DNA of 64,000 nucleotides from Elusimicrobia bacterium GWA2_51_34 (GCA_001799565.1 MGTS01000020.1:1104-65103), one strand, 5' to 3'; counted from the first letter of the stretch, positions 12,846 to 54,020 are shown. The notes: generated by a model not told the origin, from the letters alone. Made by a program: numbers and translations.

Positions 12846-13737
12846 CTTTTTTCTCCAGTAATTTTTTCGCTTTTATCTTTGCCACCTCGTCCGGCAGGCG
12901 GGTATTGCCGTCTTTCGGTTCCGCCGCCAGCACGTAATTCAACAGCGTGTCAAAAAGCTCCGCGTCCTGCGCCGCCACGGCGGCCATCTTCGCGTACATG
13001 AAGCGGTTCAATAAAAAATCCCCGCCTTCGCCTTTTAGCGCCAGTTCAAAGCGGGCCTTGGCCTTGTCTGGGTCCCCGCCCAGTATGCGCGGGCGTATGG
13101 AATAGTAAGCGCCCAGAATGCTTTGCGCCCCGTTGTAGTAGTAGCCGGGCTGAAGCGTCAGTATTTTTTCGGCCGCGGGTTCAATGCCGGGGAGTTCCGC
13201 CACGGCTTCGGGCTTATCCCTGTTGATATTTATGTAGGACGCCTTGCAGAAGGTCTGCCAGAAGAGCGGGGGGACATCCTTTTTTTTCGCGTTTTGGGTG
13301 GTAATCCCCTTCAGCGCGCGCGAAGCGTAAGTCTCGCCTTTAAGGTAGAAGATTGAGGCGCGCTCCGGGTTGTAGTCCTCCAGGAACATCAGGGCGTAGC
13401 CGCAGAAACCCTGCGCGGCGTTTATCAGCAGCTTGCGGTTGGCCGGGTCGTTTTGCAGCAGTATTTCCATCAACTGTAAATTGCCCGGCAGAGCCTCTTT
13501 AACATACTGCGTGTCGCTTTGGGCAAATACCGCCGGAAGGCCGCCGTCTATTATACCCGCCGTCTGGCGCACGGCCAGGCGGTTTAATGAGCACGCTGAA
13601 ATCAATGGAACGACAGCGAATAGCGAATAGCGAATAGCGAATAGCGAAGCGGCGAAGCAGCGAAGCAGCGGATGAATTCCGCTTCTGATTTTTAACCACT
13701 GACCACTGACCACTGACCACTGATTTATATTTTTCAC
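12832..13737 (-). CDS. Helical-repeat lipoprotein, probably a TatT-like (TPR-protein-associated TRAP, TPAT) accessory component
   Basis: It has the lipobox 'VVPLISAC' and is a helical 301-aa protein immediately upstream of the DctP-family gene, as in the Treponema tatT-tatP arrangement. The family assignment comes from context and memory, not from a search. The GTG start at 13737 is uncertain. Confidence 0.5.
   Translation of the reverse strand: MKNINQWSVVSGQWLKIRSGIHPLLRCFAASLFAIRYSLFAVVPLISACSLNRLAVRQTAGIIDGGLPAVFAQSDTQYVKEALPGNLQLMEILLQNDPANRKLLINAAQGFCGYALMFLEDYNPERASIFYLKGETYASRALKGITTQNAKKKDVPPLFWQTFCKASYININRDKPEAVAELPGIEPAAEKILTLQPGYYYNGAQSILGAYYSIRPRILGGDPDKAKARFELALKGEGGDFLLNRFMYAKMAAVAAQDAELFDTLLNYVLAAEPKDGNTRLPDEVAKIKAKKLLEKKDDLF
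13615..13723. repeat. Composite array (AGCGAAT)x4 + GCGAAGC units, a GAATTCC/TCTGATTTTTA core, then (CCACTGA)x4
   Basis: Two different perfect heptamer arrays flank the core, and they are not complementary to each other. The array lies in the 5' end of the TatT-like ORF. Confidence 0.9.
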
Positions 13738-16318: not shown

Positions 16319-16362
16319 CGTCCCCTATGGCCGCGTCCCCTATGGCCGATCCCCTATGGCCG
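16319..16362. repeat. Tandem 14-15-mer (CGTCCCCTATGGCCG)x3
   Basis: There are two exact copies plus one 14-nt variant. It lies just downstream of the 16406-17566 gene. Confidence 0.9.
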
Positions 16363-16405
16363 AAATTGCCGGGCCTTGATAGTGTCTAAAATATTCAGAC
16401 AGGCT

Positions 16406-17566
16406 TCAGTTCCCACCTACTGCCAGCGGGGCGGTTTTTTCTTTGTCTATCCATTCGCCTGTGGAAATTTTGCTGTCGGTTCTGCGAAAGCTCCATTCAA
16501 CATAGTATTCATGCCCGGCCTCAGTGGCTTCTTTCTTGAATTCGTCCCATTTGGGGTCGGAAAGGTCCAGTAATATTTGCGGGGCGGCGCCAAGATTTAC
16601 GTCAATTTCATACACCAGCTTGTCGGGCCATAAGACTATATTCTTTAACACGCGCACACGTAATCCCAGTTTCTCTTTTATATAATACTTCGTGCGTGAA
16701 TCCCGCACATCCAATATCAGGTTTTTACCCCCGTCGGTCAGCGTCAGTGTTACCGCATCATCTTCAGGAGGCGTCAATTTAAGCTTCCGAAGTGCCGTAA
16801 CATCAAATACGGTTAAACGATTCCCGTCGGCGGTTGACCCGGCGGACGGGCGTATGTCATATTCGTAGCCGGTATCTTTGGGTTTCAGGGCCGCGGCGGC
16901 CGTGTTTCCGTAATGCAGCGCAAATAATTCTGGAGTTTCCCATGGAAGAATCGGGTAATCCGGGCGGTTGAGGAACCTTATTTTGGCGCTCTCCGGCACA
17001 TGGTTCCCGGTATATTGCTGGGAATCTATAAAGTAAAAAAGGCGGGTCCCGTCCCGTTTAGGTATGAAGAAAAAGTCCCTTTTGATATTATATTCGCGCG
17101 CTTTAAGATTGTACGTATATTCCAAGGGCGCTTCCTTTTTCCCCTGCGCGGCCTTGAAGGAGAGTTGTTCTATTGCAGGCTGCTGATAATTTATCTTGTC
17201 GCTGGGCTCGGACGAGCAGGTGGATTCGTCGGAGCGTACATAACGGAACCCGACATATGTATAAAGATCGGGGTCGGGGGAGGCGTTAAGTTTAACAGCG
17301 TCAGGCGGGCAACGCTTTATTTCCGCCTCTTTCCGCGCGATATTTCCCGGTTCCGCGTATAATTTAGCAATTTTGACCATTTGCGCGGCCGGAACCGCTG
17401 TCCCGCTTTTTGGGGACCGGGCGGCATCCAAAACATCTGAAAAATGAGCCCCTATAATTTCATCAAAGGACAATTTTTCCATATCCTGCCCCGTCGCCCC
17501 GCTTGTAGCTGGGGACGCCAGGAAGAAAACTACCGGCAAAAAAGCTGAGAATGTAGTGTGTTTCAT
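16406..17566 (-). CDS. Hypothetical secreted protein
   Basis: A 386-aa ORF with the signal-peptide-like 'MKHTTFSAFLPVVFFLASPATSGA'. Its start overlaps the upstream gene's stop by 4 nt. I recognise no family. Confidence 0.6.
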   Translation of the reverse strand: MKHTTFSAFLPVVFFLASPATSGATGQDMEKLSFDEIIGAHFSDVLDAARSPKSGTAVPAAQMVKIAKLYAEPGNIARKEAEIKRCPPDAVKLNASPDPDLYTYVGFRYVRSDESTCSSEPSDKINYQQPAIEQLSFKAAQGKKEAPLEYTYNLKAREYNIKRDFFFIPKRDGTRLFYFIDSQQYTGNHVPESAKIRFLNRPDYPILPWETPELFALHYGNTAAAALKPKDTGYEYDIRPSAGSTADGNRLTVFDVTALRKLKLTPPEDDAVTLTLTDGGKNLILDVRDSRTKYYIKEKLGLRVRVLKNIVLWPDKLVYEIDVNLGAAPQILLDLSDPKWDEFKKEATEAGHEYYVEWSFRRTDSKISTGEWIDKEKTAPLAVGGN

Positions 17567-18267
17567 TTTACATTGCCTCCATCAAAACGGTTGGAATTCG
17601 TCTGGTTAAATAACAGGTTTTTAATGATGCTCTCCGATGAGGAAACGCTTTTTGGAATGTCCGTTTCCATCAGTTTCTGCGTAATTGAATTTCTCATGGA
17701 TTTCATAGCCAGAGGATTGTTTGTCACCAATTCTTCGCCGTAAACCAGAGTAACCACCGCCACCGCTCCAAGAGGGTCCAGCGTAAAACCCGTGGCATCC
17801 ACCAGTTCGCAGGAAGAGTTAGGGTTCAAGGAGAACCCTTTTTCTTTTAATCTGGCCTCGGATATGCGCGCGACGGTGAACTTGGTTTCCGTGACTTTCT
17901 CGGAGGAAGCCGAGTCGGATCCCGACGTGGAGTCGGAATCGGACCCCGAGCCGGAGGTGCTGCAGGAGCCCGAACCGGAACAGGAGCAGGAGTCGCTGTA
18001 GTGGGCTCTTGCGTTACAGCTTGCGCGGACATCTGCCGCCGCGGAAACGAAAGCTTTGGTCTTCGCTATTCTGACTACGCTCACTACCCCGGTGTTGCCG
18101 GCGGCATCCTTCCCGCACTCAATTCTCTCAGCGCCCACCTGCTGGGTAAGGTCCAGTCGTGTAATGCGGTTCTCAAGGCTCGCGGACACGTCGGCGTCTA
18201 CGTTTACGTATGACCACGCGTTGCCGGTGAATAAAACCATCAAGCCGGTATAGAACAAATGTTTCAT
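17563..18267 (-). CDS. Hypothetical secreted protein with a Ser/Cys/Gly/Asp low-complexity tract
   Basis: It has the signal peptide 'MKHLFYTGLMVLFTGNAWS' and the tract 'SCSCSGSGSCSTSGSGSDSDSTSGSDSASS'. It appears translationally coupled to 16406-17566. Confidence 0.6.
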   Translation of the reverse strand: MKHLFYTGLMVLFTGNAWSYVNVDADVSASLENRITRLDLTQQVGAERIECGKDAAGNTGVVSVVRIAKTKAFVSAAADVRASCNARAHYSDSCSCSGSGSCSTSGSGSDSDSTSGSDSASSEKVTETKFTVARISEARLKEKGFSLNPNSSCELVDATGFTLDPLGAVAVVTLVYGEELVTNNPLAMKSMRNSITQKLMETDIPKSVSSSESIIKNLLFNQTNSNRFDGGNVK

Positions 18268-18546
18268 ACTTTTATCTCCTTTAAATTTATCAGGGCCGCT
18301 GGTATCCCAATATAGTCTAAGGGAAGAATCATGTTTTTCAAAGGGCCCTTAGCCCTGCCGCGCCGCGGGAATCCGGCCTGCATGAAAATAGGACTAAAGT
18401 CCCATGCGAATATTCCCTTGCATTCAACTTGGAAGCGCAACCAGCGGTCAAATCGCCTGAAACAGGGGTTGCGCAAAAAAACGATCCGGGCGCAGGTTGT
18501 AAAAACTCTGGCCCGGATTGTATAACGCCGTTTAATTATTTACAGG

Positions 18547-19818
18547 TTAATCTCCGCTGCCCGCCGCGTCGGGCAGCATGTTGGTTCGGGTAAGGTACGT
18601 GCCGTCGAAGATCCTGGTTTCCGTAGTGTACACGTTTCCGGAGTCGTCAACCCGCAGTGTCTGTCCCCAGCCCAGGTCAAGCCCGGATATGGGATTGTTA
18701 TTAGCGTGCACATGGCCGCCCTGCACCGTATAGAGGTTGCCGTGCGTGTCTACTGTGAAGTCGCTTACATTGCCGGTCGGCACGTTCTCTAACGGGTTGT
18801 ACCAACCGCTGCCGGCCAGCATTTTCCTGTTGCCGTTCGCGCCTTCCTCAAACACATTGCCTTTGAACTGCGTGAGTACCCTTCCGTCGGCGCTTACATT
18901 GAATTTATCCACACCGTACCTGGTTACTACCGTTTCTGTGTAGTATTCGGTATGCTCATCGCCGTCGCTGTCCGTCACGGTCCTTGAGCGCCATACCGTG
19001 TCCACATGCACTTCGGATGGCACGCGGGCGACCACCCGCGGCTTTTGGGTTGCCGGGTCCACCATCATTATGATATCTTCGGAATTTTTGGAGTACTGCG
19101 CGTACAACTTATCGTCCGCGCTGGCGCTGATCTTTATTAATGACGCATTGCTGAAGATGCTGTTACTGAACGTGGTTACATATTTGCCGTCGCGGTATAC
19201 TTTATTGGTCCAGCCTTCCTGGGTGTATAAATGGTCCTGCCCGTCCTGGCCTTTGACCACCTGCAGGTTGGAGGCGGCTTTGGTCTCTAAGACCGTTTTC
19301 CAGTCGCCCACGAATTCGCCTTTCTCGTTCCACATGTCGCCTTCCGTGTCGGGCGTGGCTTTCTGTATGGCGCGGTTGGAATCCCAGAATTTCCACCACG
19401 GAGACACTTTGGCAACGCGGTACATATTGCCGTCCGGAGAGACCACCAGGCCGTTGAGCCCTTTCTGCTTTACACCCGGTTTGTCGGACAGCAGGGACAG
19501 TAACGGAGGAGCTTTTGTCTTGGTCGCGGGGGGCTTAGCCTGTGTGGCCGCTTTAGCGGCCGGCTTGCCGGTCAAAGACATGCGCACTGCCGCGCCTTTG
19601 GCTACGCCGCCGCCGTTATGGTTGCCGTCGAAAATCCAGTCCTGCACTATTTTGTTGAATGTTGCGCCCTTATCAAGGGACAGTACTTCCACAGCATCAA
19701 TATCCGTCTTCATGGTGGCAGTGGAAACGGCTGTGGCGTTAGATCCGGCCACGAAAACTCCGGCCGCCACCATAAAACCGCACGTTCCCGAAGTGATGAT
19801 TTTCGCTATTTTTTTCAT
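18547..19818 (-). CDS. Hypothetical secreted repeat protein (possible beta-propeller)
   Basis: It has the signal peptide 'MKKIAKIITSGTCGFMVAAGVFVAG'. The 'D-G-x-hydrophobic-Y' blades recur (VSPDGNMYRV, VSADGRVLTQ, VDTHGNLYTV, VDDSGNVYTT). Confidence 0.6.
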   Translation of the reverse strand: MKKIAKIITSGTCGFMVAAGVFVAGSNATAVSTATMKTDIDAVEVLSLDKGATFNKIVQDWIFDGNHNGGGVAKGAAVRMSLTGKPAAKAATQAKPPATKTKAPPLLSLLSDKPGVKQKGLNGLVVSPDGNMYRVAKVSPWWKFWDSNRAIQKATPDTEGDMWNEKGEFVGDWKTVLETKAASNLQVVKGQDGQDHLYTQEGWTNKVYRDGKYVTTFSNSIFSNASLIKISASADDKLYAQYSKNSEDIIMMVDPATQKPRVVARVPSEVHVDTVWRSRTVTDSDGDEHTEYYTETVVTRYGVDKFNVSADGRVLTQFKGNVFEEGANGNRKMLAGSGWYNPLENVPTGNVSDFTVDTHGNLYTVQGGHVHANNNPISGLDLGWGQTLRVDDSGNVYTTETRIFDGTYLTRTNMLPDAAGSGD

Positions 19819-23134: not shown

Positions 23135-23160
23135 GAATTGAAGGTTCAGGATTCCGGATA

Positions 23161-23184
23161 AAAAAGCGCTTATGGCGCTTTTTT
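23161..23184 (+). terminator. Rho-independent terminator after the flavodiiron gene
   Basis: AAAAAGCGC-TTATG-GCGCTTTTTT forms a 9-bp stem followed by a T-run. Confidence 0.75.
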
Positions 23185-23194
23185 GATTTGGGCC

Positions 23195-23223
23195 TTGAAA
23201 AAAAGTGTTTCCTCTGCTAGACT
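23195..23223 (+). promoter_or_regulatory. Candidate sigma70-type promoter of the P1-P5 cluster
   Basis: TTGAAA (23195-23200), a 17-nt spacer, then TAGACT (23218-23223). It lies just after the upstream terminator and about 150 nt before the P1 ATG. Confidence 0.4.
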
Positions 23224-23369
23224 GTAATCGCGGGATATCCCTTAGCTTTCAGTTTCCGGCGCCCCGCCCTTTTGCCGACAGAGTTAAACGGAATAGGGCA
23301 AAAGAGCGGGGCGGGAGAGGTGAAAGTAAGGCATTTTTCGTTTGTGCTGTTTTCGGGGGGGAAACTGAT

Positions 23370-24644
23370 ATGGCCGAAAATGATGAGGGCAGGCAGGATG
23401 ACAACGCCAGCGGCCACCGGCACTCCGGAGGCAGAAAAAAAGCGCTTATAGTTTCTGTGCTGCTCTTCCTTCTTTTTGGCGGCGGGATTTTCCTGTTTTT
23501 CGTGATTCAGGGCGCCGACGATTTAAAAGATAATAAAACGCGGAATTTTTCCTACGGTTCCGAGGCCAGGGCCGGAGTGAGCGCTTTTATGAAGTATCTT
23601 AGTTTTACCTCGGATGAGGTCGAATTTTCGGAGGCCGCCCGGGGAAGAAACGCGGCAAGGAGGCTGGATTCTTCCGCGGCCGGCCCGACTGCGGATATTT
23701 CCGACTGGATGGATAAGGGCGGCGCGGGCACTGGTTCTTCCGGCGGTTCGGCCGCTCCCGGCTCAAGGGGCTTCGGCGTTTCCATTCCCAGAATGGCGGC
23801 GAAAGGCGCGGGCCTTGGTTCCGCCGGCGGCGCGGGCACTAAATCTTCAGCCGGGCTTTCCAGATTCGGTTCAGGCGGAGACTCCGGTAATGTTGCTGTT
23901 TCAAAAGCCGGCGATCTTGGCGCCAGGGGCCCTGGCTCTAAAAACGCCGCGCTTTCGTCATTGCGCAATTCTCAGGCCTACCTGGGCGACGCGCTTAAAA
24001 GTTCTTCCGCCATGGAGGCTAAGGCCAAATGGGGGCAAAGTTTCGGCATGGGTGATAAGGGGGGAGGGGAGGCGCTTGCCTATAGCAAGAGCAGTTTGGC
24101 TAAACTTGATGCCATAAAAAGCGGGGAAATAACCAACCTTAAAACCAATGATCTTAAATCCCTTAAAATACCAGATGTCGGCGCCCCTGAAAAAGTCAAA
24201 TCAAGCGAGGCAGAAAATGCCGCACTCGACAAAATGAAGGAGGACGCCAAGGCGGGATTGACTAATCCGATGTTCGGTTCCATGGCCGGCGCTTTAGGCG
24301 CGAATAAAGGCGGAACCGGCGCGGGTAGAAATTCCACCCCTCCGCCGGAGATCACGCAGCTTGGAAATCTTCCCAAACCTGAGGGGCAATACTGTCCAAC
24401 GGCGGAAGGATGCCGTTTGGTCCCTGACAATGGAAGCGTATTCAAGGACAATGCGCCTACCTTCCAGCAGAACCCTGCCGGCGGCTGGCAGGCCACTTAT
24501 GAGGGGCAGCAGACGGGCCCTGACGGCCGCGTTACATACTATAAGGATATCGTTCCTCTTAATCCGGGCGGTAATCCGCAGTTCGGTCCTCCTATCTCAT
24601 TTGAGGGGGCCAGTTCAAACGGCCTCATGCGGGTTGCACAGTAA
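23370..24644 (+). CDS. Cluster protein P1: N-terminally anchored Gly/Ser/Ala-rich low-complexity protein, unknown family
   Basis: 'MAENDEGRQDD..GGRKKALIVSVLLFLLFGGGIFLFFVIQG' gives a charged N-terminus followed by one TM. About 300 aa of G/S/A-rich sequence follows, then a roughly 90-aa C-terminal region with 2 Cys ('CPTAEGCRLVPDNG..'). The ATG at 23370 follows a G6 run. Confidence 0.7.
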   Translation: MAENDEGRQDDNASGHRHSGGRKKALIVSVLLFLLFGGGIFLFFVIQGADDLKDNKTRNFSYGSEARAGVSAFMKYLSFTSDEVEFSEAARGRNAARRLDSSAAGPTADISDWMDKGGAGTGSSGGSAAPGSRGFGVSIPRMAAKGAGLGSAGGAGTKSSAGLSRFGSGGDSGNVAVSKAGDLGARGPGSKNAALSSLRNSQAYLGDALKSSSAMEAKAKWGQSFGMGDKGGGEALAYSKSSLAKLDAIKSGEITNLKTNDLKSLKIPDVGAPEKVKSSEAENAALDKMKEDAKAGLTNPMFGSMAGALGANKGGTGAGRNSTPPPEITQLGNLPKPEGQYCPTAEGCRLVPDNGSVFKDNAPTFQQNPAGGWQATYEGQQTGPDGRVTYYKDIVPLNPGGNPQFGPPISFEGASSNGLMRVAQ

Positions 24645-24661
24645 AGGAAGGCGGTCTATAG

Positions 24662-24723
24662 CCCGGTGTTTAATACCCCGGTGTTTAATACCCCTTGACA
24701 AGTCAAGTGTTTTCTGCTATACC
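24662..24723 (+). promoter_or_regulatory. Tandem 15-mers plus a TTGACA-containing palindrome upstream of P2
   Basis: (CCCGGTGTTTAATAC)x2 lies at 24662-24691. The palindrome CTTGACAAGTCAAG (24693-24706) contains TTGACA, and a weak -10 TATACC follows after 17 nt. Confidence 0.3.
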
Positions 24724-24833
24724 ATAAGTGCGGTCGGTAACTTTGCCTTGAACATTTAAGTAAACTGTGTCAAGGAAAGTTTAGTGGTATTTATGCCTGC
24801 CGGGTTTAGAAGGGCCGTAAAAAGAGGGGGGTT

Positions 24834-34400: not shown

Positions 34401-35333
34401 CAAGGCAAACCCAAATGGGCCGCCTTCCCCTCAGGCAATAGTGTCAGCGCTTTGCGTGCGGCAGCCGAGAAAGAATGGAACAAGCTGCAGTCTTGTCTGG
34501 CCGCGGCCGAGCCATTGCATAACACAACGAATGCCGCCACGGAAAATACCCGCAAGGAAGCGCTGACGGCCCTGGAAACATTAAGGACGAAGGCTGAAGC
34601 CGCTGAACTGGCGCTGAAAAAATTGAATGATGCCTTTGAGGCTGCCGGTAAAATATCCGATAAATGCTGGGAGCGCGCCGAAGGCTGCCGCACGCTCAGC
34701 AACTTCTATATGCACAAGAACTGGAAGGTGCGTAAGCAGAAGCTTACCGCCGGATCAGCCTACGCCGAAGCCGACGGCGCTGAAGGGCAGGCTTGGGACT
34801 GGGCCTACGCGAACCGCCCCGGTGTTTATTCAAGCTGGGGACAGGATGACAGAGAGAGTGTCTGCAGGGATGCGTGGGCCAGTGTGCCCTGGTGGAGGTA
34901 TGCGCTTAACTTCCGCCTCAGCGCTGCTGTTGAGGATTGCAAGGCTAAATGGTTTATCCCCGTGTTCGGGATACAGCATCGTTCTGAACCGGTGGAAAGC
35001 AGAGGCGTCTTTACGTCATTTACGCTTGCAAGGACAGTGAACGGTAAGACCAGTAAGACATATGAAGGCGAGGCCCAGAAGAGTGAGTTCACCGGTAAGC
35101 TTAAAGTCCTTTGCGGCAGGTCCGACGGGGCCTGGAGGACCACGTCTGTTTCTTTCCTGGTGCACAAGCCTATTACTCAAACCTACCCCGAAGGAATCAG
35201 CATCAGCGCGGGGCAATCGTTCTTCAAAATGGGCTCTGCTGTGACCAATGGTGCGGGCACTACCGTGCATTTCGGAGAGTGGCAGGCGCTGACCAGAATG
35301 CACGGCGTGAACTGCGGAGGCGACGCGGATTAA
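31476..35333 (+). CDS. Cluster protein P6: 1285-aa N-terminally anchored giant protein, unknown family
   Basis: The ATG at 31476 follows GAGGGAGGG. It begins 'MKLNDNEEKKDGLPP', has the TM 'MAFVGIGLGVLVMAPVAEYMM' and a G/S/A-rich stretch. Cys clusters follow ('QFCWQPAVCDDGDCREA', 'KRCICGEG'), then a long Ala/Lys/Glu helical region and 'PENPANPVNPSNPVNPDPN'. The C-terminal domain is Trp/Cys-containing. A strong terminator follows at 35357-35391. Confidence 0.75.
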   Translation: MKLNDNEEKKDGLPPILSSSFKKTVSFGRTSGFLKSTGNIMKRLKNLSKKDMAFVGIGLGVLVMAPVAEYMMSGPPADNLLAPGFGGREQGSASGIFEPGINGLSQGSADGSGEVITPLSARDPLSLILGSQSSAPPMPAAAAPRVDLRDAMKDAGRSAFSAAAKSAGAPTPIPKMQGALRSVGSFFSGGESSRSADNLSGDKILQDARNASGKSAARSMLGPVAAAGYKGVASALNSSSKDAFEKLRAKAGRSAGNFSGESAISSLDKAAADALNAGQGTGGAGAGGSGEKTKDPSNSTNKNEHSWNKGEKSLSELAAEARQKAALDWEFYKKYEIPKQIITALMENVVTGGLIKPLGDMVNGTVNSMLGNYPPTQFCWQPAVCDDGDCREAVTENNVTAPVDLCVKFGAIGFKMEKAGKESTGNFQVKRCICGEGNAPTNGAPYIPGGTTPEDSPDATPGNAQPQVPDAFGKVFADYDTVLQDMVNQTVAAESNASDPAMVEASAKSVAGGFKNINIKVNDVVFPLLNSAKTKAGADLDGYSGRVGETQAKFTATQVKYQAFIPQVAALEKDLAEKKLKMKVHDGMEVIADEGTLTRVRAAIDLWKGQGPVYLNNADGLLASHRKKMTDYASQLSLVEGGIDSIRKKQSAANDAAESIISGEDGWPLKLKKMTGRGQDAVSADKGTEAVPPVKQVATGLRALDWDTLWAAEHKFDSSRVAAEEKQAWGDWQKKITVSLGQPDNFVSNLLRSGEIQQAIVGALPDFSNVEGMLSDTETSMGKTKRTVTGSGVDSCYFADGGCGAVPENPANPVNPSNPVNPDPNTGGGAQAGLTSSANALYSTYSGKLSAAQSAYANLPPKNMIDPKSQAEYGPLLAQAGKNMDELRVAVKELEGIKAALATPNLPPAKVAELKAKLAAAQPKLEKASTAVDAGVKAAADFARLHPLSPAGGLTLQGIKSEGTKAFNKIITAYGQGKPKWAAFPSGNSVSALRAAAEKEWNKLQSCLAAAEPLHNTTNAATENTRKEALTALETLRTKAEAAELALKKLNDAFEAAGKISDKCWERAEGCRTLSNFYMHKNWKVRKQKLTAGSAYAEADGAEGQAWDWAYANRPGVYSSWGQDDRESVCRDAWASVPWWRYALNFRLSAAVEDCKAKWFIPVFGIQHRSEPVESRGVFTSFTLARTVNGKTSKTYEGEAQKSEFTGKLKVLCGRSDGAWRTTSVSFLVHKPITQTYPEGISISAGQSFFKMGSAVTNGAGTTVHFGEWQALTRMHGVNCGGDAD

Positions 35334-35356
35334 TCAATCGGTATTTTAAGCGGTTT

Positions 35357-35391
35357 AAAACCCCGTCCGCCTTAGGCGGACGGGGTTTTTT
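35357..35391 (+). terminator. Rho-independent terminator after the giant gene P6
   Basis: AAAACCCCGTCCGCC-TTA-GGCGGACGGGGTTTTTT forms an 11-bp GC-rich stem (15 bp with the A/T extension) followed by T6. Confidence 0.85.
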
Positions 35392-35516
35392 GTGTTATTG
35401 CCGGGGCCGGAAAATCGTATAATGTAAATGAGATTGGATAAACAGCCACAAGACACAAGCGGGAGTTCCTGCGGCTGAATGTCGTTTCGCAAAGCACATG
35501 CGCGTAGGGGAGAAAA

Positions 35517-36368
35517 ATGAAAAAAATAATATTAGCGGCGGTTGCATGTACGGTTTTAGGTCTTAACGCGGCGGCCTATTTCAGCGGGGGGGCTAGTTCT
35601 GTTTCCGGCCCCGATGGTTATCACGGAACGAACCTTAATCTGGTTATAGGCTCCGGCAACCTGGCCATAGAGCCCTCGCTGGCCGCCTATACCTGGGACA
35701 CGCTGGACGATACATTTCACACATATACGCTTCGCGGAGCCTGGGAAGCGGAAAAGTACACCGTGGCCGGACTGGTCGGTTCCACCCCTGAAGTCAACGG
35801 CTATTCCAATAAGTTTTTCGGCGGCGATATAACTGTTTCTCTTACTCCCGGAGAAGGCGGGAAGTCCCGTCTTACCGGCCCCGGTTCGCGCGGCGGCGCG
35901 CGCGGTGGACAGGGCGTAACCCGCATTGATGTTGGCGCTGGCCTTAAGCAAACCATGCATACTCAGGCCGTTGGGACAACCGATAATGAAACCTCCCAGA
36001 CCGAAGGCTCGCTGTTTGCCGGGGCTAAAATACTGATGGTGAACCTTTCCGCCTCTTATACCGGTTATAAGTATGGCGACGAAGACGCGGCTCCGCTGGG
36101 TTTTGTTCCCGGTCTTAGCTTCGCCTTCGGGGCTTTTCCCAAGTCCAGTGTCAACGTGAAATTGGACCTGCCCGGTTTCCCCATGGTGACTCCGTTCGTT
36201 TCATACACCGGCACCAAGTATAAGGGAGGCCGTGACGACAGTTCCGCTTACCTGTTCGGCGCTTACCTTGACTTGAGTATGGTAACGGCAAATGTCGGCT
36301 ACCAGATGTTTGACAACGGTTCCACTAAGGACAATTACCTGTCGGTCGGAGCGGGAATAAAGTTCTAG
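35517..36368 (+). CDS. Putative outer-membrane beta-barrel protein (P7)
   Basis: It has the signal peptide 'MKKIILAAVACTVLGLNAAA', alternating-hydrophobicity strands rich in Gly/Tyr/Thr, and the C-terminal 'YLSVGAGIKF' (terminal Phe, an OMP beta-signal). Confidence 0.6.
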   Translation: MKKIILAAVACTVLGLNAAAYFSGGASSVSGPDGYHGTNLNLVIGSGNLAIEPSLAAYTWDTLDDTFHTYTLRGAWEAEKYTVAGLVGSTPEVNGYSNKFFGGDITVSLTPGEGGKSRLTGPGSRGGARGGQGVTRIDVGAGLKQTMHTQAVGTTDNETSQTEGSLFAGAKILMVNLSASYTGYKYGDEDAAPLGFVPGLSFAFGAFPKSSVNVKLDLPGFPMVTPFVSYTGTKYKGGRDDSSAYLFGAYLDLSMVTANVGYQMFDNGSTKDNYLSVGAGIKF

Positions 36369-45546: not shown

Positions 45547-48219
45547 ATGAAATACTGGTTCTATTCCGAAGGCAATATTCTTGGCCCCTACGCCCCCGGC
45601 GAACTGCTTACTCTGCCGGCTTTCGCGCAGGACAGCCTTGTTTGCCTTGAAACTTCCACCGGAGATAAACCGGATGACTGGAAGCCGGCTTCCCAAGCGG
45701 AGGAAATAGAGGAAGCTTTAAGTGTGGGAGCCGGTAAATCAATTTCTTCAGGCTATGGCGGCATTGGGGATCTTTACGCGCTTGAAACCGGTTTTTCACA
45801 AGTGTCAACACCCGTCTATGAAAGCGCCTTTGAACAGGGCTATGCCTGTGAAAATCTGCTGGGCACAATAGACGATATTCTTAAGACCGGGGACGGCGGT
45901 TCTGCCGGCGAGCCTGAGATATCGGCCTATTCCGCTTCAGGTGGCCTGTCCGCAACTGAGTGGAAAAGTTCTTTTGACTATGACCAGATGGATAAATTTG
46001 ATGTTCCTCTCTCAAAAATACAGGAGGATCTGGAATTGGCCCGCTGGGAAAAAGACCTTTTGCAGGAAAAAGTAAGACTGAAGGACCTGGAGGACAGGAA
46101 ACAGCGTGATCGTATAGAGGAATTGGAAGTCAGGCTGAAGACGGTGCTGGACCAGGGCGGCGCCATGGAAAAAGAATTTGAGCAGTTGCGCCAATCCTCA
46201 GGAGGTTCCGTCCCAGAGGCCGCTGGCCCACAAAACGGCCGTCTGGAGGATTTAACGGAACAGGCCGAAACCGTAAGAAAGACGGAAGAAATTAACAAAG
46301 ATAATTCAGCTGAACTCTCGTGCGCTTCTTCGGCCGGGCCGAAAAATACGATTAACGAAAAAGACATTAGAGTTTTAAAGAACCTGAGGGTTTCCGATGA
46401 GGTAAAACTTGAAAGGCTTGGTGACAGCGATGACGCCGCGCAAGCTGGAAATAGCATTACCAGCCGCAGGCTGAAAAGCCTGGGCGGAAGCGCTAAAAGC
46501 CAGGAAGGCCCCGGCTTATTGGCGGAGGATGAGGCGACATCCAGCCAAACCGGGGGAGGGGCGCCCAGTATTGAACCGCCGCCGCTTGCAACTCCGGAGC
46601 CAAAGCCTGAGACATTGTCCGCATTAAACGGCGGAGCCCTTTCCGTGGATTTGCCGCAGGGGGACGCCGCACAGCGGCCTCCCTTGCTGCCGGCCACTAC
46701 CGGTAATTTGGAGTCTTTGCCTAAGTCGGACGGGGTGATTCAGGACTTTACAGCTGAAACTCCAAAAAGCGAAGAGCCTTTTAAAAAGACGCAGATCAAT
46801 TCAGGGTTGCCTGGCCATGGCGGATTTCCTGATCATGCAGGTTCCGTTTCCCAATCCTTTGGAGGTGCCGTCCCAGAGGCCTTTGGCCCACAAAACGGCC
46901 AATCCTTTGGAGGTGCCGTCCCAGAGGCCGCTGGCCCACAAAACGGCCAATCCTTTGGAGGAGGGGAAACCGCATTTGCGGTGTCCCCTCAGTCGCGGAC
47001 GACGCCAGGCCGGATGACAGCGCCGGAGGCCACCGGCACGCCAGAGTCAGAGGCCCGCGACAGGTCAGAGCCACAGCCGGTGGGAAAGGGTGTCCCAGAG
47101 GCCTCAGCCGCGGAGGCTATTCAGGATCAGGCACAAAAAGCGCCTGACTCCACCCCTGTCAAACAGCAGCCGGTTTCCGTTCCGGATAAAATGGCGCGCA
47201 TAACAATATCCGGCAATGGGCTGAAAACGGAGGTTGAATCCCAGGTCAAACCGGCCAGAAAAGGCGGAAGACTGGCATTTATCGCTATCATCATAATTTT
47301 TGGCGCCATAGCTGCGGGAGGGCTTGGTTTCTTCTTTCTTGGCGATGGCCTCAGCTTTTCAGAATTTTCAATGCTTGATTTCAATTCTTTAAAACGCGCC
47401 CAAAAAAGCATCATGCCTTCTCAGCTTGAACCGCAGGTTAGCGATAAAAACGCTGGCCAATCCACCGAAGTTGCCGTCGCGGGGGCCTCAGATGCGGACA
47501 GCGCCAGTGTCCCGCAACAGGTCAGCGTCTCCGGTCAGCAAAACGGTCTGCCGGCAGCGGAGAACGCGGTAAAAAGCGTTCCTGAAAACCAGTCCGGAGG
47601 GGCTCAAAGCCCTGCCACAGCTGCGGAGCAGTCGCCTGAAAAAACTTCCGCGCCGCTTGCCGTAAATGAGGGAGTTAAAACCGCGATTGAGACAGTTAAA
47701 AACTACAAATTATCCGGAGGCAGGGGCGCTATCGGCGGCTGGTTTGCCAATTCTTTTCTTTCTGGTTCTTCCGGCGCCGCGTCCGAAGAGTGGTCGGCAA
47801 CTCCGCTTCACGGAGATATTCTTGTTGTGCAGTATCGCCTGATAAGGCAAAAGCAGGACCCGCTTATTTATCAATTTGAAGTGGACGGCGCAAAAAACGA
47901 CATAATCCGCGGTATCAACAATAATGCCATAGAACTGCTGGATTTCTCCTCCGGAAAAACAGAACAGTCCGCGGTTTACGCTCCTAAACCGGAAGGTCGG
48001 GTAAGAAAAATATCGGCAAAAAAACTTTCCGCCAAAGCTAAACTGGTGAGAAAGCCAGGCAAGTCTAAAGGAGTCCCTTTACTCCCGCTGCCGGACGCGC
48101 CGGCGGCTGGCCTTAACAACGAAGATGAGGATTCAGCCGGTTTTGAAGATGCTCAATCGGATAACGGGGAAAAGGTGGAATACATAAAAGCTCAGGAATC
48201 CGACGAGGAGTTGTTCTAG
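45547..48219 (+). CDS. GYF_2 (DUF4339)-domain protein with coiled coil, internal repeats, one TM and a C-terminal domain
   Basis: The N-terminus 'MKYWFYSEGNILGPYAPGELLTLPAF' is GYF_2-like. It also has a coiled-coil 'LQEKVRLKDLEDRKQRDRIEELEVRLK', 'SFGGAVPEA(F/A)GPQNGQ' repeats and the TM 'LAFIAIIIIFGAIAAGGLGFFFLG'. It lies directly upstream of pilB. Confidence 0.65.
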   Translation: MKYWFYSEGNILGPYAPGELLTLPAFAQDSLVCLETSTGDKPDDWKPASQAEEIEEALSVGAGKSISSGYGGIGDLYALETGFSQVSTPVYESAFEQGYACENLLGTIDDILKTGDGGSAGEPEISAYSASGGLSATEWKSSFDYDQMDKFDVPLSKIQEDLELARWEKDLLQEKVRLKDLEDRKQRDRIEELEVRLKTVLDQGGAMEKEFEQLRQSSGGSVPEAAGPQNGRLEDLTEQAETVRKTEEINKDNSAELSCASSAGPKNTINEKDIRVLKNLRVSDEVKLERLGDSDDAAQAGNSITSRRLKSLGGSAKSQEGPGLLAEDEATSSQTGGGAPSIEPPPLATPEPKPETLSALNGGALSVDLPQGDAAQRPPLLPATTGNLESLPKSDGVIQDFTAETPKSEEPFKKTQINSGLPGHGGFPDHAGSVSQSFGGAVPEAFGPQNGQSFGGAVPEAAGPQNGQSFGGGETAFAVSPQSRTTPGRMTAPEATGTPESEARDRSEPQPVGKGVPEASAAEAIQDQAQKAPDSTPVKQQPVSVPDKMARITISGNGLKTEVESQVKPARKGGRLAFIAIIIIFGAIAAGGLGFFFLGDGLSFSEFSMLDFNSLKRAQKSIMPSQLEPQVSDKNAGQSTEVAVAGASDADSASVPQQVSVSGQQNGLPAAENAVKSVPENQSGGAQSPATAAEQSPEKTSAPLAVNEGVKTAIETVKNYKLSGGRGAIGGWFANSFLSGSSGAASEEWSATPLHGDILVVQYRLIRQKQDPLIYQFEVDGAKNDIIRGINNNAIELLDFSSGKTEQSAVYAPKPEGRVRKISAKKLSAKAKLVRKPGKSKGVPLLPLPDAPAAGLNNEDEDSAGFEDAQSDNGEKVEYIKAQESDEELF
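46853..46962 (+). repeat. 48-nt tandem repeat (2.3 copies) inside the GYF-domain gene, with dispersed copies at 46201-46250 and about 47085-47110
   Basis: The unit is AATCCTTTGGAGGTGCCGTCCCAGAGGCC(TTT/GCT)GGCCCACAAAACGGCC. It contains the small palindromes CCAGAGGCCTTTGG and TTGGCC..GGCCAA. The CAAAACGGCC module also occurs in noncoding 31005-31016. Confidence 0.9.
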
Positions 48220-48277
48220 CACGAAAATTGCCTGTAACCTCCAGAATTCCAACTGGGGAATTCGGACTAACAGAGCC

Positions 48278-48427
48278 GTGAGTGGCCAGTTGCTAATGGT
48301 CAGTCGCGGCATTCTTTTTTGATGCATTCGGTATATATGTGGTAACATATTGTGAAAGATTTGAGTCTTCGTCGTTCCAATATTTTTCTTAGACTGGACA
48401 CTGACCACCGGGCACTGGCCACTTTCC
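48278..48427. repeat. CAGTGGC-type inverted repeat bracketing the pilB upstream region
   Basis: GAGTGGCCAGTTGCTAATGGTCAGT ... ACTGACCACCGGGCACTGGCCACTT (blocks of 10 and 8 perfect bp). The spacer is an 83-nt AT-rich stretch. GAATTC-containing motifs lie at 48244 and 48259. Confidence 0.8.
48319..48348 (+). promoter_or_regulatory. Candidate pilB promoter in the AT-rich loop of inverted repeat 48278-48427
   Basis: TTGATG, an 18-nt spacer, then TAACAT. This is the only AT-rich stretch in the GYF-pilB spacer. Confidence 0.3.
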
Positions 48428-48433
48428 GTTATT

Positions 48434-50203
48434 ATGGCTGAAAAAGGCATATTCATAAATATTTCAAAAAAGCTGGGGGAGATGCTTGTCTCCTCAGGCC
48501 TTATTACCGCTGTCCAGCTGGCGGAGGCGCTGGACCTGCAGAAGGCCGGCGGCGGCAAGCTCGGACACCTTCTGGTACATAAGGGCTACATAGAAGAAAA
48601 GCAACTGCTTTCATTCCTTAGCAAACAATTCGGCATAGAATTCGTAGATATGGCCGCTATGGAGATCCCGGACTCCGCCTTGAAAATTATTCCGGAAAAT
48701 ATCGCCCGCCGCTATAGTCTTATCGCTATCGGGAAAAAAGAGAACACTCTTAAAGTAGCCATGGAGGACCCGCTTAACATTGTAATCCTTGACGATCTTA
48801 AAATGATGACCGGCTACGACATAAAACCGGTTTTTGGTTCGGAAACCGATATCGCTTCGGCCATAAATAAATATTACGGCACCAAGTCCTCAAAGGAAGC
48901 CTTAGACGACATTCTGCGCAAGACCACCGGCGGCGTTACGGATATTTCACTGGTAAATACAGATGAGGGCGCTGGTACGGCGGACGACTTTCTTTCCCTG
49001 GAAGCGAAAGGCGAGGCCGCTCCCATAGTGCAGATGGTAAACCTTATTATTTCTTCGGCCATCAGGGCCCACGCCTCGGACATCCATATAGAGCCCGGCT
49101 ACAAAGATACCCGCGTGCGTTTTCGCATAGACGGCGTTCTGCATAACCAGCCCTCGCCTCCCAAAAAATTTCATAATGCCATTATCAGCCGTCTTAAAAT
49201 AATGTCCACCCTGGATATCTCTGAGCGCCGCCTCCCGCAGGACGGTCGCAGCAAATTAAAAATTGATGACCGAGAAATAGATCTGCGCGTTTCCATTCTG
49301 CCCTGCGGCCCCGGGGAAAAAGTCGTAATGAGAATACTTGACTCCTCAGGCCTGAAGCTTAAGCTTGAGGATCTGGGTTTTGAGCCGGAGAACCTGGCTA
49401 TTTTTTCCAAGTGCCTGAAGGCGCCGCACGGCATTAATCTGGTGACCGGGCCTACAGGATCTGGCAAATCCACCACGCTTTATTCGGCGCTGGCCACCAT
49501 GAATGAGCCGGATGTAAACATTGTCACCATAGAGGATCCCATTGAATACAACCTGGAAGGCATAAACCAGGTTATGGTGAATACTGATGTGGGGCTTACT
49601 TTCGCTTCGGGCCTGCGGTCTTTTCTGCGACAGGACCCCGACATTATAATGGTGGGGGAAATTCGCGACTTTGAAACTATGGCCACCGCTATCAATGCGG
49701 CCATGACCGGGCATCTTGTGTTTTCAACGCTTCACACAAACGACGCTCCCGGCGCCATCACGCGTATAGGCATGATGGGGGTGGAGCCGTTTCTGACTTC
49801 CTCCACGCTTTTAATGGTTGTGGCCCAGCGCCTTGTGCGGTCCATCTGTAAAAATTGCCAGGAAACCTACGAGATAAAACCGGAGATGATGATAAGCCTC
49901 GGTGTGTCAAAGGCTTTCCTTGATAACAATGCCAAAAATGGTAAAATAATTCTGTCAAGAGGCAAAGGTTGCGACATTTGCGCCCGAACCGGCTACAAGG
50001 GCCGGGTAGGTATTCACGAAATACTTGAGGTTAACGATGTAATCAGGGGGCTCATTATAGAGAAAGCCCATGTCGCAAAGATTAAGGACGCGGCCCGCAA
50101 GAACGGCATGATAACCTTGCGTGAATCGGCGATAAGGAAGCTTTTTGCCGGGCTGACCACGGTGGAAGAAGTGTTAAGGGTTACCAGCTCGGATGTGGAT
50201 TAA
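48434..50203 (+). CDS. pilB: Type IV pilus assembly ATPase PilB (GspE family)
   Basis: It has an N-terminal T2SSE_N/MshEN-like domain ('LGEMLVSSGLITAVQLAEALDLQ'), the Walker A 'GPTGSGKSTT', 'IMVGEIRDFET' and the tetracysteine 'CKNC..CDIC'. Confidence 0.9.
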   Translation: MAEKGIFINISKKLGEMLVSSGLITAVQLAEALDLQKAGGGKLGHLLVHKGYIEEKQLLSFLSKQFGIEFVDMAAMEIPDSALKIIPENIARRYSLIAIGKKENTLKVAMEDPLNIVILDDLKMMTGYDIKPVFGSETDIASAINKYYGTKSSKEALDDILRKTTGGVTDISLVNTDEGAGTADDFLSLEAKGEAAPIVQMVNLIISSAIRAHASDIHIEPGYKDTRVRFRIDGVLHNQPSPPKKFHNAIISRLKIMSTLDISERRLPQDGRSKLKIDDREIDLRVSILPCGPGEKVVMRILDSSGLKLKLEDLGFEPENLAIFSKCLKAPHGINLVTGPTGSGKSTTLYSALATMNEPDVNIVTIEDPIEYNLEGINQVMVNTDVGLTFASGLRSFLRQDPDIIMVGEIRDFETMATAINAAMTGHLVFSTLHTNDAPGAITRIGMMGVEPFLTSSTLLMVVAQRLVRSICKNCQETYEIKPEMMISLGVSKAFLDNNAKNGKIILSRGKGCDICARTGYKGRVGIHEILEVNDVIRGLIIEKAHVAKIKDAARKNGMITLRESAIRKLFAGLTTVEEVLRVTSSDVD

Positions 50204-50206
50204 CAA

Positions 50207-50295
50207 GGCCATAAGCCATAGGCCTTAGGCCATAAAAGGGAAGTGCTTTCTGCCTATGGCGTATGGCGGGCACGGTGCCCTTATGGCTTATGGCA
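50207..50295. repeat. GCCATAAG-type periodic-arm inverted repeat (pilB-pilT spacer)
   Basis: GGCCATAAGCCATAGGCCTTAGGCCATAAAA ... GCCTATGGCGTATGGCGGGCACGGTGCCCTTATGGCTTATGGCAG. Confidence 0.9.
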
Positions 50296-50318
50296 GACGG
50301 TTTTTTTAGGAGTTACTT

Positions 50319-51395
50319 ATGGTTACAATGAGCGATTTGTTTATATTGATGCATGAAAAAAATGCTTCCGATATACATATAACCGCCGGCGCTCCGCCCA
50401 TGCTTAGACTTGACGGCGAACTGCTGCCGACGCCATTTGAAAAGCTTAACCCGGACATGGTCCAGACTCTGGTGTTCTCGCTTATGACCGATGCCCAACG
50501 CCAGCGTTTTGAAGCCGTCAACGAGTTGGATTTCGCATTCGGCATAAAAGGCATGGGCCGCCTTAGAATGAACGCGTACCGCCAGCGTGGGGTGATAGGC
50601 GCGGCCATCCGCTCCATCCCGAGCAAGTTCAAGACCTTTGATGAACTGAATCTGCCGCCGATTGTTTACGAAATAATGAAGCTTACCAAGGGGCTTATAC
50701 TTGTAACCGGCCCCACAGGCTCCGGCAAATCCACCACGCTCGCCTCAATGATAGACTACTTAAATGAGCACCGGAACTACCACATAATCACCGTGGAAGA
50801 TCCCATTGAGTATGTGCATACCCACAAAAAAAGCATTGTCAACCAGCGTGAGGTGGGTTCCGATACCGAAACCTTCGGCGCGGCGCTTAGGCATGTGCTC
50901 AGGCAGGACCCCAATGTGATACTTATCGGCGAAATGCGCGACCTTGAAACCATAAGCGCGGCCTTAAATATCGCGGAAACCGGCCATCTGGTGTTTGCCA
51001 CGCTGCATACCTCGGACGCCGCGCAGACCATAAACCGCATTATAGACGTGTTTCCGCCGCATCAGCAGGCCCAGATCAGGGTGCAGTTGTCCTTTGTTTT
51101 GCAGGGTGTTATGGCGCAGCAGCTTCTGTCCTCCGCTTCCGGTACGGGCCGTGTTCTGGCCAGTGAGGTTTTAATGGCCAACTCCGCGGTAAGAAACCTT
51201 ATCCGGGAACAGAAGATTGAGCAGATAAATACCATTATCCAGACTGGCGGCAAGTACGGCATGGTTACCATGAACCAGGCTCTGGTGGACCTCTACAAGA
51301 AGCAGAAAATTACCTACCAGGAAGCCATCACCAGGTCCTCGGACCCTGAAGATTTGAAAAAACTGCTGCAGAAAACATTGTCGGTGCAGAGTTGA
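50319..51395 (+). CDS. pilT: Type IV pilus retraction ATPase PilT
   Basis: It contains 'ASDIHITAGAPPMLRLDGEL', 'GPTGSGKSTTLASMIDYLN', 'LRQDPNVILIGEMRDLETI' and 'GHLVFATLHT'. The ORF is 358 aa. Confidence 0.9.
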   Translation: MVTMSDLFILMHEKNASDIHITAGAPPMLRLDGELLPTPFEKLNPDMVQTLVFSLMTDAQRQRFEAVNELDFAFGIKGMGRLRMNAYRQRGVIGAAIRSIPSKFKTFDELNLPPIVYEIMKLTKGLILVTGPTGSGKSTTLASMIDYLNEHRNYHIITVEDPIEYVHTHKKSIVNQREVGSDTETFGAALRHVLRQDPNVILIGEMRDLETISAALNIAETGHLVFATLHTSDAAQTINRIIDVFPPHQQAQIRVQLSFVLQGVMAQQLLSSASGTGRVLASEVLMANSAVRNLIREQKIEQINTIIQTGGKYGMVTMNQALVDLYKKQKITYQEAITRSSDPEDLKKLLQKTLSVQS

Positions 51396-51485: not shown

Positions 51486-51498
51486 TTGTTTAATAATT

Positions 51499-52750: not shown

Positions 52751-52840
52751 TTGGTGTATTCACGCGGTACCCCGTAGTTTTGTGGGATATAGTAAACAAT
52801 GTGTTTGTTTTATCATGATAAAGTAAAGTATAATTTCCCC

Positions 52841-53983: not shown

Positions 53984-54020
53984 TCTATTGAAATCGCAAC
54001 TTGACAGGGGGAGTGCTCAA

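Follow-up and report, generated by a model that had tools for sequence, protein, structure and literature searches.

TolA and TonB combine an N-terminal membrane anchor, N-terminus inside, with a periplasmic part that is long and extended or of low complexity, and they lack an enzymatic domain. The Thermotoga Omp-alpha/Omp-beta pair and the OmpM-type tethers have a membrane-anchored helical rod encoded beside a beta-barrel gene and are thought to set envelope spacing. PilM/N/O/P and GspL/M are rows of small to medium-sized bitopic inner-membrane proteins with short conserved cytoplasmic N-terminal peptides, the curli (csgBAC/DEFG) and Pseudomonas fapA-F operons encode Gly/Ser/Ala/Asn-rich paralogues with a barrel gene nearby, and HlyD and EmrA extend an antiparallel hairpin of long helices (~10 nm) into the periplasm behind an N-terminal transmembrane (TM) anchor. 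Likenesses to all of these meet in a cluster of six consecutive genes, P1 to P6, and its neighbouring gene P7 (Table 1), in a 64,000-nucleotide stretch of Elusimicrobia bacterium GWA2_51_34 (GCA_001799565.1, MGTS01000020.1:1104-65103; hereafter the window, whose coordinates are used unless a locus is named). The cluster is outside every tested system in sequence, fold and gene content, and is undescribed in the literature searched. We consider it very likely that P1-P6 are a real, conserved and uncharacterised envelope gene set.

An earlier note on this DNA, made from the sequence alone, had seen no recognisable family in the seven proteins, and this held: hmmscan of P1-P7 against Pfam-A and NCBIfam at E ≤ 1, together with comparisons against PHROGs and PADLOC, returned compositional noise only, and no enzyme or nucleoside triphosphatase signature was found in P1-P6 with these four collections. 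Searches of the PDB with the P4, P5, P6 and P7 family profiles likewise found no related sequence, the P6 profile meeting only generic coiled-coil proteins (dynactin, EnvC, apolipoproteins, SMC). At the level of fold, Foldseek at E ≤ 0.001 gave no match for the P6 model in the PDB and BFVD or for the P5 model in the PDB. None of ten distant P6 relatives carried a Pfam domain, an Rfam scan of the whole window gave no match, and the literature searched held nothing relevant on such a cluster in Elusimicrobia. A mobile or defence island was considered and rejected on the core-genome location, the lack of PADLOC/PHROG matches and the absence of mobility genes.

The differences from the described systems are specific to each. 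Compared with TolA and TonB, the cluster lacks TolA domain III and the TonB C-terminal domain, no TolQ/R or ExbB/D genes lie in or adjoining it, and the genes of the loci examined included no recorded member of the MotA/ExbB or ExbD families. P4 does contain a TolA-like Ala/Glu/Arg helical repeat, but this is the variable and not the conserved part of the protein, and its score against the TolA profile (TIGR02794; 20.2 bits, cut-off 59.45) came from the Ala/Glu repeat at residues 136-176 only. Whereas Omp-alpha and OmpM invite comparison with P6 and P7, no SLH domain was matched in P1-P7 (Pfam), the anchor of P6 is an N-terminal inner-membrane TM helix, genetic coupling between P7 and P6 is lacking, and five further membrane proteins are present. 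PilM/N/O/P and GspL/M differ in that the cluster has no actin-like PilM or secretin and its proteins are much larger and Gly-rich; it also moves independently of pilB/T/C. Unlike curli and Fap subunits, P1-P6 have uncleaved anchors, P3-P5 are anchored at both ends, no amyloid repeat units are present and the barrel gene P7 forms a separate, unlinked unit; CsgA/B, FapB/C, CsgG and FapF had no match in P1-P7 (Pfam, NCBIfam). P6 lacks the lipoyl and beta-barrel domains of HlyD/EmrA, a HlyD-family match, and a pump or TolC partner. The type IV secretion components VirB6/TrbL, VirB8 and VirB10/TrbI were unmatched in P1-P7 (Pfam-A, NCBIfam), and no ATPase gene, VirB4/D4 included, occurred within the cluster in any locus.

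Word-indexed searches, clustered at 90% identity, returned 109 clusters for P6, 53 for P5 and 128 for P4, and all those with a name were 'hypothetical protein' of Elusimicrobia or Elusimicrobiota. In an exhaustive HMMER search of 1.84 billion representatives, the P6 profile matched 489 at E ≤ 1e-3 (265 of them at E ≤ 1e-30), and the sole named distant match was from Elusimicrobia. A scan of one genome per species yielded 47 loci, titled Elusimicrobia, Elusimicrobiales, Elusimicrobiaceae or 'bacterium', and a metagenome scan with the P5 profile gave 48 further loci. The proposed lineage specificity was thus borne out, all named homologues being from Elusimicrobia/Elusimicrobiota.

The order P1-P2-P3-P4-P5-P6 was present in every locus long enough to hold it, and no other order was found in any locus. 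Complete, ordered P1-P6 sets were seen in ~31 of the 47 genome loci and ~19 of the 48 metagenome loci, the remainder being cut by contig ends or without P1. The P2-P3-P4 spacers measured 15-45 nt in most loci, and insertions occurred solely between P4 and P5 (a B12-binding radical S-adenosylmethionine (SAM) gene) or after P6, with none inside P2-P3-P4; extra P3/P4 copies were present in L006, L024 and L059. The earlier expectation of synteny in relatives therefore stands for P1-P6, with their order fixed in ~95 loci; P7 is only weakly linked. In three lineages the flanks differed: L007 (ftsH, P2 P3 P4 P5 P6, a TPR gene, ksgA), L110 (an S41 protease gene, P1-P6, a 292-residue protein, a TPR gene, ksgA) and L006 (P2, P3, P4, an extra gene, P5, P6, glycosyltransferases).

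A second arrangement was found in other Elusimicrobia lineages, in L108, L109 (GCA_016218545.1), L111 and L112 (Table 1). There, distant P6 relatives of 910-956 residues each follow a P5-like gene of 430-500 residues, and P1-P4 are absent. Here the P6-like gene is followed on its 3' side by a gene for a secreted protein of 900-1100 residues, and then, in L108, L109 and L111, by one for a protein of 2400-2900 residues that has a signal peptide and is TM-rich in its middle; in L112 the contig ends within another large gene placed after that of the secreted protein. The secreted partners are mutually homologous at 22-25% identity and absent from the first (P1-P6) group, and no Pfam domain was found in the second-operon genes. 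Since P5 and P6 also occur without P1-P4 and with other partners, they are the most widely conserved unit. A Ser/Thr kinase gene stands beside the P5-like/P6-like pair in L108 and L111.

B12-binding radical SAM genes occupied the P4-P5 gap in at least 7 loci from several Elusimicrobiales genomes, and such genes lie near P5 in L009 (6234-7601), L011 (6523-7881), L018, L035, L077, L081, L082 and L079. In L109 (371-8493) and L111 (2865-8361) a set of radical SAM/DUF4070, acyl carrier protein (ACP) and ketoacyl-synthase genes lies upstream of the P5-like gene. We do not take this linkage for a strong clue: with ~25% identity only, the two radical SAM groups are not orthologues, and the link to P5 may be chance.

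P1-P7 are real genes, each having orthologues in dozens of genomes with E values between 1e-60 and 1e-200. The seven plus-strand open reading frames (ORFs) lie exactly where the earlier note had placed them, the same genes were called independently in three public assemblies, and a GGAGG/GGGGG-type site precedes each of the seven starts, as had been claimed for the ribosome-binding sites. The identical P6 protein is on record in 13 public contigs (including MGUJ01000065.1 of GCA_001799915.1), and the named relatives from the same study as these contigs are Elusimicrobia metagenome-assembled genomes (MAGs) from groundwater. Median orthologue identity to the window proteins was 38% for P1, 54% for P2, 49% for P3, 48% for P4, 42% for P5, 34% for P6 and 62% for P7.

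P6 begins with a cytoplasmic segment (residues 1-52) and a TM helix (53-73), followed by a highly conserved Gly/Ser/Ala-rich module (74-345) containing GEVITPLSxRDPxSLILG (31476-32510 from the gene start), a conserved helix (LEWEFFKKYEIPKQII) and a small 4-Cys module. An all-helical bundle of ~470 residues comes next (~475-945; 32898-34310), with helices of up to 77 residues (an estimated ~11 nm), and the C-terminal part (946-1285; 34311-35330) is variable, homologues ranging from 805 to 1413 residues in length. The AlphaFold2 model, built for residues 86-1285 from 110 sequences, had a predicted local distance difference test (pLDDT) score above 90 for the bundle (model residues 390-860) and below 50 elsewhere, with almost no strands. 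Across the same 110 sequences the majority residue was shared by 60-76% at positions 86-335, ~25% in the bundle and <15% in the last 340 residues, where occupancy is low. P5 starts with an N-terminal TM helix, and its conserved region at 1-340 (invariant W101, GFSW, TYDGN) is modelled as disordered; a helical hairpin next to the membrane with 8 conserved Cys (residues ~346-450; 30240-30554; pLDDT 89-98) and a C-terminal TM hairpin (455-504; 30567-30716) follow. Its AlphaFold model, from an alignment of 51 sequences, was confident for the helical hairpin and the following TM hairpin only. The Cys counts of 8 in P5 and 15 in P6 confirm the Cys-rich character first remarked on; conserved Cys occupy eight columns in P5 (77-100% of sequences) and four in P6 (379, 390, 432, 434), all after the TM helix, which would fit disulfide-bonded extracytoplasmic domains.

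Of the remaining proteins, P1 has a TM helix at residues 27-45 with the N-terminus inside, a conserved Gly/Ser-rich region (140-260) and a variable C-terminus; it is an accessory member, missing from L026, L041, L088 and L007. P2 consists of an N-terminal TM helix (15-33), a conserved predicted periplasmic region and a terminal Met/Ile-rich amphipathic segment. P3 starts with a Lys-rich cytoplasmic N-terminus and TM1 (~49-72), continues with a conserved predicted periplasmic region of ~265 residues, and has 3-4 Ala/Gly-rich TM helices in its C-terminal part (~339-450; 26942-27277) with a conserved GQKxxGxxY loop. The cytoplasmic N-terminal peptide of P4, LPEIxFKEKKxKKxGxLxW, is nearly invariant; it precedes TM1 (~64-85), a YVPAILRSQ...SSLDMF motif, a variable EEAARR repeat, a conserved Gly/Phe/Lys-rich region and C-terminal TM helices (~366-470; 28634-28948). 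The extra C-terminal TM helices that had been noticed in P3 and P4 are thus present. In-frame tandem repeats occur in P4 (27944-28060; 24/54-nt unit encoding EEAARRAE) and P5 (30174-30220; 9-nt unit x5 encoding GPSGPSGPS); they fall in poorly conserved linker parts of the families and are therefore likely length-variable spacers.

Pairwise BLAST detected almost nothing among P1-P6. Profile-profile comparison joined P3 to P4 over their full length (100% probability, E 1e-39) and P2 to P3 (96.5%, E 7e-10), and P2 matched a merged P3+P4 profile at 96% and E 2e-9 over 305 columns, the best of 30 column-shuffled control profiles reaching E 0.023. By these comparisons P2 is a short paralogue of P3/P4. 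P1 aligned with the N-terminal part of P6 in hhalign (80%, E 1.5e-5 over 58 columns) and with P3 at 52%, and its xPR(M)Q and LKxND motifs are common to P3 and P6; the P5 profile matched no other cluster profile. In the aligned segments, linear motifs follow TM1 in the same order: an SSLDMF-type juxtamembrane motif, xP(K/R)(M/L)Q, a Gly-rich run, LKxNDPSL(N) and a hydrophobic segment. The motifs picked out at first reading are all present (SSLDMF in P3 and P4, NDPSLNS in P2 and P3, KKEKKG-type N-termini). The six proteins had been taken for paralogues throughout; P2, P3 and P4 do form a demonstrable family, while P1 and the N-terminal part of P6 share motifs and P5 is unrelated. P1 and the N-terminal module of P6 may, on these motifs, be distant relatives of the P2/P3/P4 family. 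In the Elusimicrobium-like loci L050 and L058 the cluster P1 has an N-terminal extension of ~250 residues, the L058 copy with internally repeated P1-like segments, and a second, divergently oriented P1 paralogue of 488 residues lies between P6 and P7 on the minus strand (L050 15302-16768; L058 15234-16700).

A common architecture for P1-P6 had also been proposed, and each protein does have one N-terminal hydrophobic helix and a Gly+Ala+Ser content of 32-42%; the description 'low-complexity' holds for composition only. The 20 residues before TM1 contain 3.7-5.1 Lys/Arg in P1, P2, P5 and P6, as against ~2 after it, which fits an N-in orientation. The idea that the Gly/Ser/Ala-rich stretches are a disordered spacer is not supported: they are the most conserved parts of the proteins, in P2-P5 as in P6, though AlphaFold predicts disorder. 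In P5 and P6 these conserved regions have pLDDT <50 despite, in P6, the majority-residue conservation given above.

P7 was the proposed outer-membrane end of an anchor-spacer-barrel chain, and the synteny analysis is against it. The protein has a signal-peptide-like N-terminus, several strands of alternating hydrophobicity and a C-terminal ...GAGIKF, and it is likely, on these features, an outer-membrane beta-barrel of an undescribed family: none of 28 orthologues matched Pfam at E ≤ 0.1, OmpA_membrane, OMP_b-brl, porin, Omp85, FadL and similar families included. Its gene always lies within ~180 nt upstream of dnaX, is separated from P6 by 0.9-7.4 kb of unrelated genes in many relatives (deoxyhypusine-synthase-like, FGE-sulfatase, thioredoxin-like, Sel1-repeat), and is absent near the cluster in L006, L007, L041 and L110. 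The chain is thus not supported, with P7 in a separate unit past a strong terminator, tied to dnaX and absent where the cluster is relocated; we rejected P7 as the outer-membrane end of the system, and its genomic placement suggests that it is probably not a cluster member. A Sel1-repeat gene (~320 residues) follows P6 closely in L009 (13704-14657) and in the Elusimicrobium-like loci L050 (14064-15017), L057 (14678-15652, one small gene after P6) and L058 (14001-14954), and has no counterpart in this window.

Table 1. Cluster genes, candidate regulatory features and loci of the second arrangement
Feature	Position	Strand	Length	Remark
P1	23370-24644	+	424 aa	
P2	24834-25862	+	342 aa	
P3	25928-27463	+	511 aa	
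P4	27539-29023	+	494 aa	
P5	29205-30731	+	508 aa	
P6	31476-35333	+	1285 aa	
P7	35517-36368	+	283 aa	neighbouring gene
Hairpin and T-run	23160-23185	+		AAAAAAGCGC-TTATG-GCGCTTTTTT; 3' of flavodiiron-protein gene, read from the sequence
Sigma-70-like promoter candidate for P1-P5	23195-23223	+		TTGAAA, 17 nt, TAGACT; TG before second hexamer
P1 leader, one long hairpin	23225-23369	+		minimum free energy -58 kcal/mol, z = -3.8; 0/200 shuffles as stable
Conserved regulatory stretch upstream of P6	31264-31405	+		nhmmer and alignment of ~36 loci
Second operon type, L108	8680-22733			
Second operon type, L109	8601-22865			
Second operon type, L111	8398-22763			
Second operon type, L112	2-10888			

The hairpin upstream of P1 likely marks, from its stem and T-run, the end of the preceding transcription unit; the terminator scan missed it because the T-run belongs to the stem. 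The promoter candidate behind it, already pointed out in the earlier note, matches the consensus at 9/12 positions and follows this terminator-like hairpin, but is not significant alone, as the region has 7 such sites where 8.8 are expected by chance. Upstream regions of P1 in relatives also tend to structure (median z -1.95, n = 25), with no conserved structure established. The P5-P6 spacer in relatives (L009-L054) runs from a terminator-like hairpin through a palindrome (GGGCC-AAAG-GGCCC) and a -35/-10-like pair (..TGACACTTGGC.. / TATAAT) to the ribosome-binding site; in the window this spacer (30732-31475) is 745 bp, as against ~330 bp in relatives, and the palindrome is degenerate. Of 25 occurrences of the strict palindrome across the loci, 21 lie upstream of P6; being near-exclusive to this position, the palindrome is likely the operator of a putative dedicated P6 regulator. 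After P6 the claimed terminator is present (35357-35389, plus strand; strong and intrinsic, with a 15-bp stem with 10 G-C pairs, then a T-run), and together with the element upstream of P6 it suggests three units: P1-P5, P6 and P7. A sigma-54 promoter upstream of P6 was rejected, as TGGCAC-N5-TTTT is a poor match and relatives show the -35/-10 pair, and so was a conserved small ORF between P5 and P6, whose similarity is explained by the conserved DNA element.

The membrane anchors and conserved Cys modules would fit an extracytoplasmic structural role. Our preferred reading, which we put forward tentatively and hold somewhat short of probable, is that P1-P6, with P2-P6 as the core, form an Elusimicrobiota-specific, inner-membrane-anchored, periplasm-facing hetero-oligomeric scaffold of the envelope. 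P3 and P4, each with one N-terminal and 3-4 C-terminal TM helices, would form a membrane-embedded base, joined by P2 and, where present, P1 as truncated paralogues. The Gly/Ser/Ala-rich stretches would act through short linear motifs (SSLDMF-type, xP[KR][LM]Q, LKxNDPSL) and would fold or dock only once assembled with one another or with a partner; this would account for strong conservation in stretches that, in isolation, are modelled as disordered. P5 and P6 would provide a disulfide-stabilised stalk whose helices of ~10-11 nm project into the periplasm, and the variable C-terminal end of P6 could contact a lineage-variable partner (the wall, the outer membrane or another protein). On the cytoplasmic side, the Lys-rich N-terminal peptides of P3, P4 and P6 might dock a shared partner. 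Such a system would be structural or organising, not catalytic, without a motor or enzyme of its own, and P6 would be regulated separately through its own promoter and operator. A bolder version, which we think possible though doubtful, is that P2-P6 are an undescribed envelope machine found only in Elusimicrobiota. P5 and P6 would then be its universal disulfide-braced helical stalk, used with alternative partner sets (P1-P4, or the ~1000-residue secreted protein and the 2400-2900-residue protein), and the Gly/Ser/Ala/Phe-rich sequences would be a functional periplasmic meshwork or an assembly-dependent fold unlike other bacterial envelope systems.

Several observations weigh against the scaffold. 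The low pLDDT may stem from the shallow alignments (50-110 sequences) and not from true disorder, and a long helical bundle is a generic fold that is no proof of a stalk. The charges flanking TM1 of P3 and P4 are uninformative, so their periplasmic orientation is assigned by analogy, although their extreme N-termini are Lys-rich. P1-P5 and P6 appear, from the elements between them, to be separate transcription units. Moreover, murC, the flavodiiron-protein gene, P1...P6, P7, dnaX, recR and comEC are collinear in one order-level group; since the whole region is collinear there, most loci are not independent evidence, and independent support from synteny comes down to the three relocated loci and the second arrangement.

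This collinearity, which extends to nearly all loci, is also what recommends the view that there is no system, only unrelated lineage-specific membrane proteins left adjacent in a region that rarely rearranges, as would the presence of at least three transcription units. We regard this as highly improbable: P2-P6 are relocated as a unit to other surroundings, the second arrangement retains P5 and P6 as a pair, P2/P3/P4 are paralogues and motifs are common to P1 and P6, and insertions are confined to the P4-P5 gap and the 3' side of P6, never falling within P2-P3-P4. Another possibility is a component of the type IV pilus or of the competence machinery, an accessory or alignment module like PilN/O/P or FimV that has diverged strongly. 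PilB, PilT and PilC genes do lie 13 kb downstream, with ComEC, RecR and RecN between, the architecture is bitopic, and the P4 N-terminus reads KKGLLPWLKSR, which may bear a faint likeness to the INLLPWR peptide of PilN. Yet between the cluster and pilB stand seven unrelated genes, several of them housekeeping, the genes called around the relocated clusters in L006, L007 and L110 included none with a recorded type IV pilus domain, the proteins are 2-6x the size of PilN/O, and PilN (PF05137), PilO (PF04350), PilP, GspL/M and secretins had no match in Pfam or NCBIfam, all of which makes a pilus module very unlikely. An envelope-biogenesis factor for unusual lipids or outer-membrane assembly, serving as scaffold for lipid-modifying radical SAM enzymes, would account for the radical SAM genes in the P4-P5 gap of at least 7 loci and for the radical SAM, ACP and ketoacyl-synthase set that, in L109 and L111, immediately precedes the P5-like gene. 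It is as improbable as the absence of any system, as the two enzyme groups are not orthologues, the same radical SAM gene is placed elsewhere in L022, and most loci, this window included, have no radical SAM gene; enzymes of this kind are also abundant in anaerobe genomes.

A lineage-specific substitute for divisome or elongasome scaffolds (like FtsQ/L/B/N, ZipA, RodZ or MreC) would have the N-terminal peptides bind a cytoskeletal protein while the periplasmic parts organise wall synthesis. It agrees with the bitopic N-in architecture and the nearly invariant cytoplasmic N-terminal peptides of P4, P3 and P6, with phylum-wide conservation, with the lack of an enzymatic domain seen in many divisome adaptors, and with a core-genome site adjoining a MurC-type ligase, MurJ being encoded within the window as well. 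The murC linkage is nevertheless lost where the cluster is relocated, no FtsQ/POTRA, DivIC, SPOR, MreC or RodZ match was obtained in Pfam-A or NCBIfam at E ≤ 1, and known adaptors are far smaller and contain less Gly; we judge this role unlikely. Composition like that of curli and Fap subunits, paralogous subunits in one operon, the likely outer-membrane barrel gene next door in this genome and the variable distal end of P6 would suit the building blocks of a polymer that is secreted or lies on the surface (fibril, functional amyloid, S-layer-like coat), in which the helices would be signal anchors and the Gly/Ser/Ala/Asn-rich sequence the polymer. The 45-65 residues before the TM helix, however, are conserved as cytoplasmic peptides and show no signal-peptidase-like site, the C-terminal TM helices of P3, P4 and P5 would keep both ends held in the membrane, curli/Fap-type imperfect repeats are lacking (there are two short variable repeats only) as are Csg/Fap matches, and P7 is not linked to the cluster. 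A polymer is accordingly quite unlikely, and the envelope scaffold remains the reading that we prefer.

Elusimicrobiota are a widespread phylum (groundwater, sediment, gut) of which very few members are in culture and for which cell biology is almost lacking. In poorly studied phyla, conserved 'dark' operons are frequent. A five- to six-gene membrane-protein module that is conserved phylum-wide and in which no domain, fold, motor or enzyme is known suggests a structure or principle of the envelope absent from model organisms. The cluster is a clean test case for how sequences that are compositionally simple and predicted to be disordered, yet conserved like globular domains, would work outside the cytoplasm. 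Should it prove to stand in for a 'universal' envelope system (such as tethering, division scaffolds or a pilus platform), this would be relevant to the diversification of the diderm envelope. Among the related loci with the cluster are some from uncultured Elusimicrobium MAGs, a genus with a species in culture.

Other genes of the window include a type IV pilus motor block at 45547-52698 (PilB 48434-50203, PilT 50319-51395, PilC 51499-52698). The 890-residue protein encoded before PilB has no Pfam match; by eye it shows a GYF-like N-terminus, long low-complexity stretches and one central TM helix, and its gene contains a 48-nt tandem repeat (46851-46961). At 53988-55472, 18 kb from the cluster, a 494-residue protein has an N-terminal lipoprotein domain of CsgG/LpoB/FlgO-like type joined to many TPR repeats; the gene just upstream (52799-53983) encodes an AAA_14/DUF4143 ATPase, and the GC fraction falls to 0.41 at 54-56 kb. 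Three consecutive genes on the minus strand (16406-19818) encode secreted proteins of 386, 234 and 423 residues with signal peptides and no Pfam family, the 234-residue middle one having a Ser/Gly/Asp/Cys-rich run. The P1-P5 spacers had been described as free of the repeats found elsewhere in the window, which does not hold entirely: the P1-P2 spacer contains a 15-nt repeat in 2.5 copies. Short intergenic tandem repeats lie at 869-917, 13614-13723, 16319-16363 and 24658-24694, their units being perfect heptamers (CAGTAAC x7, AGCGAAT x5, ACCACTG x4) and 14-15-nt units.

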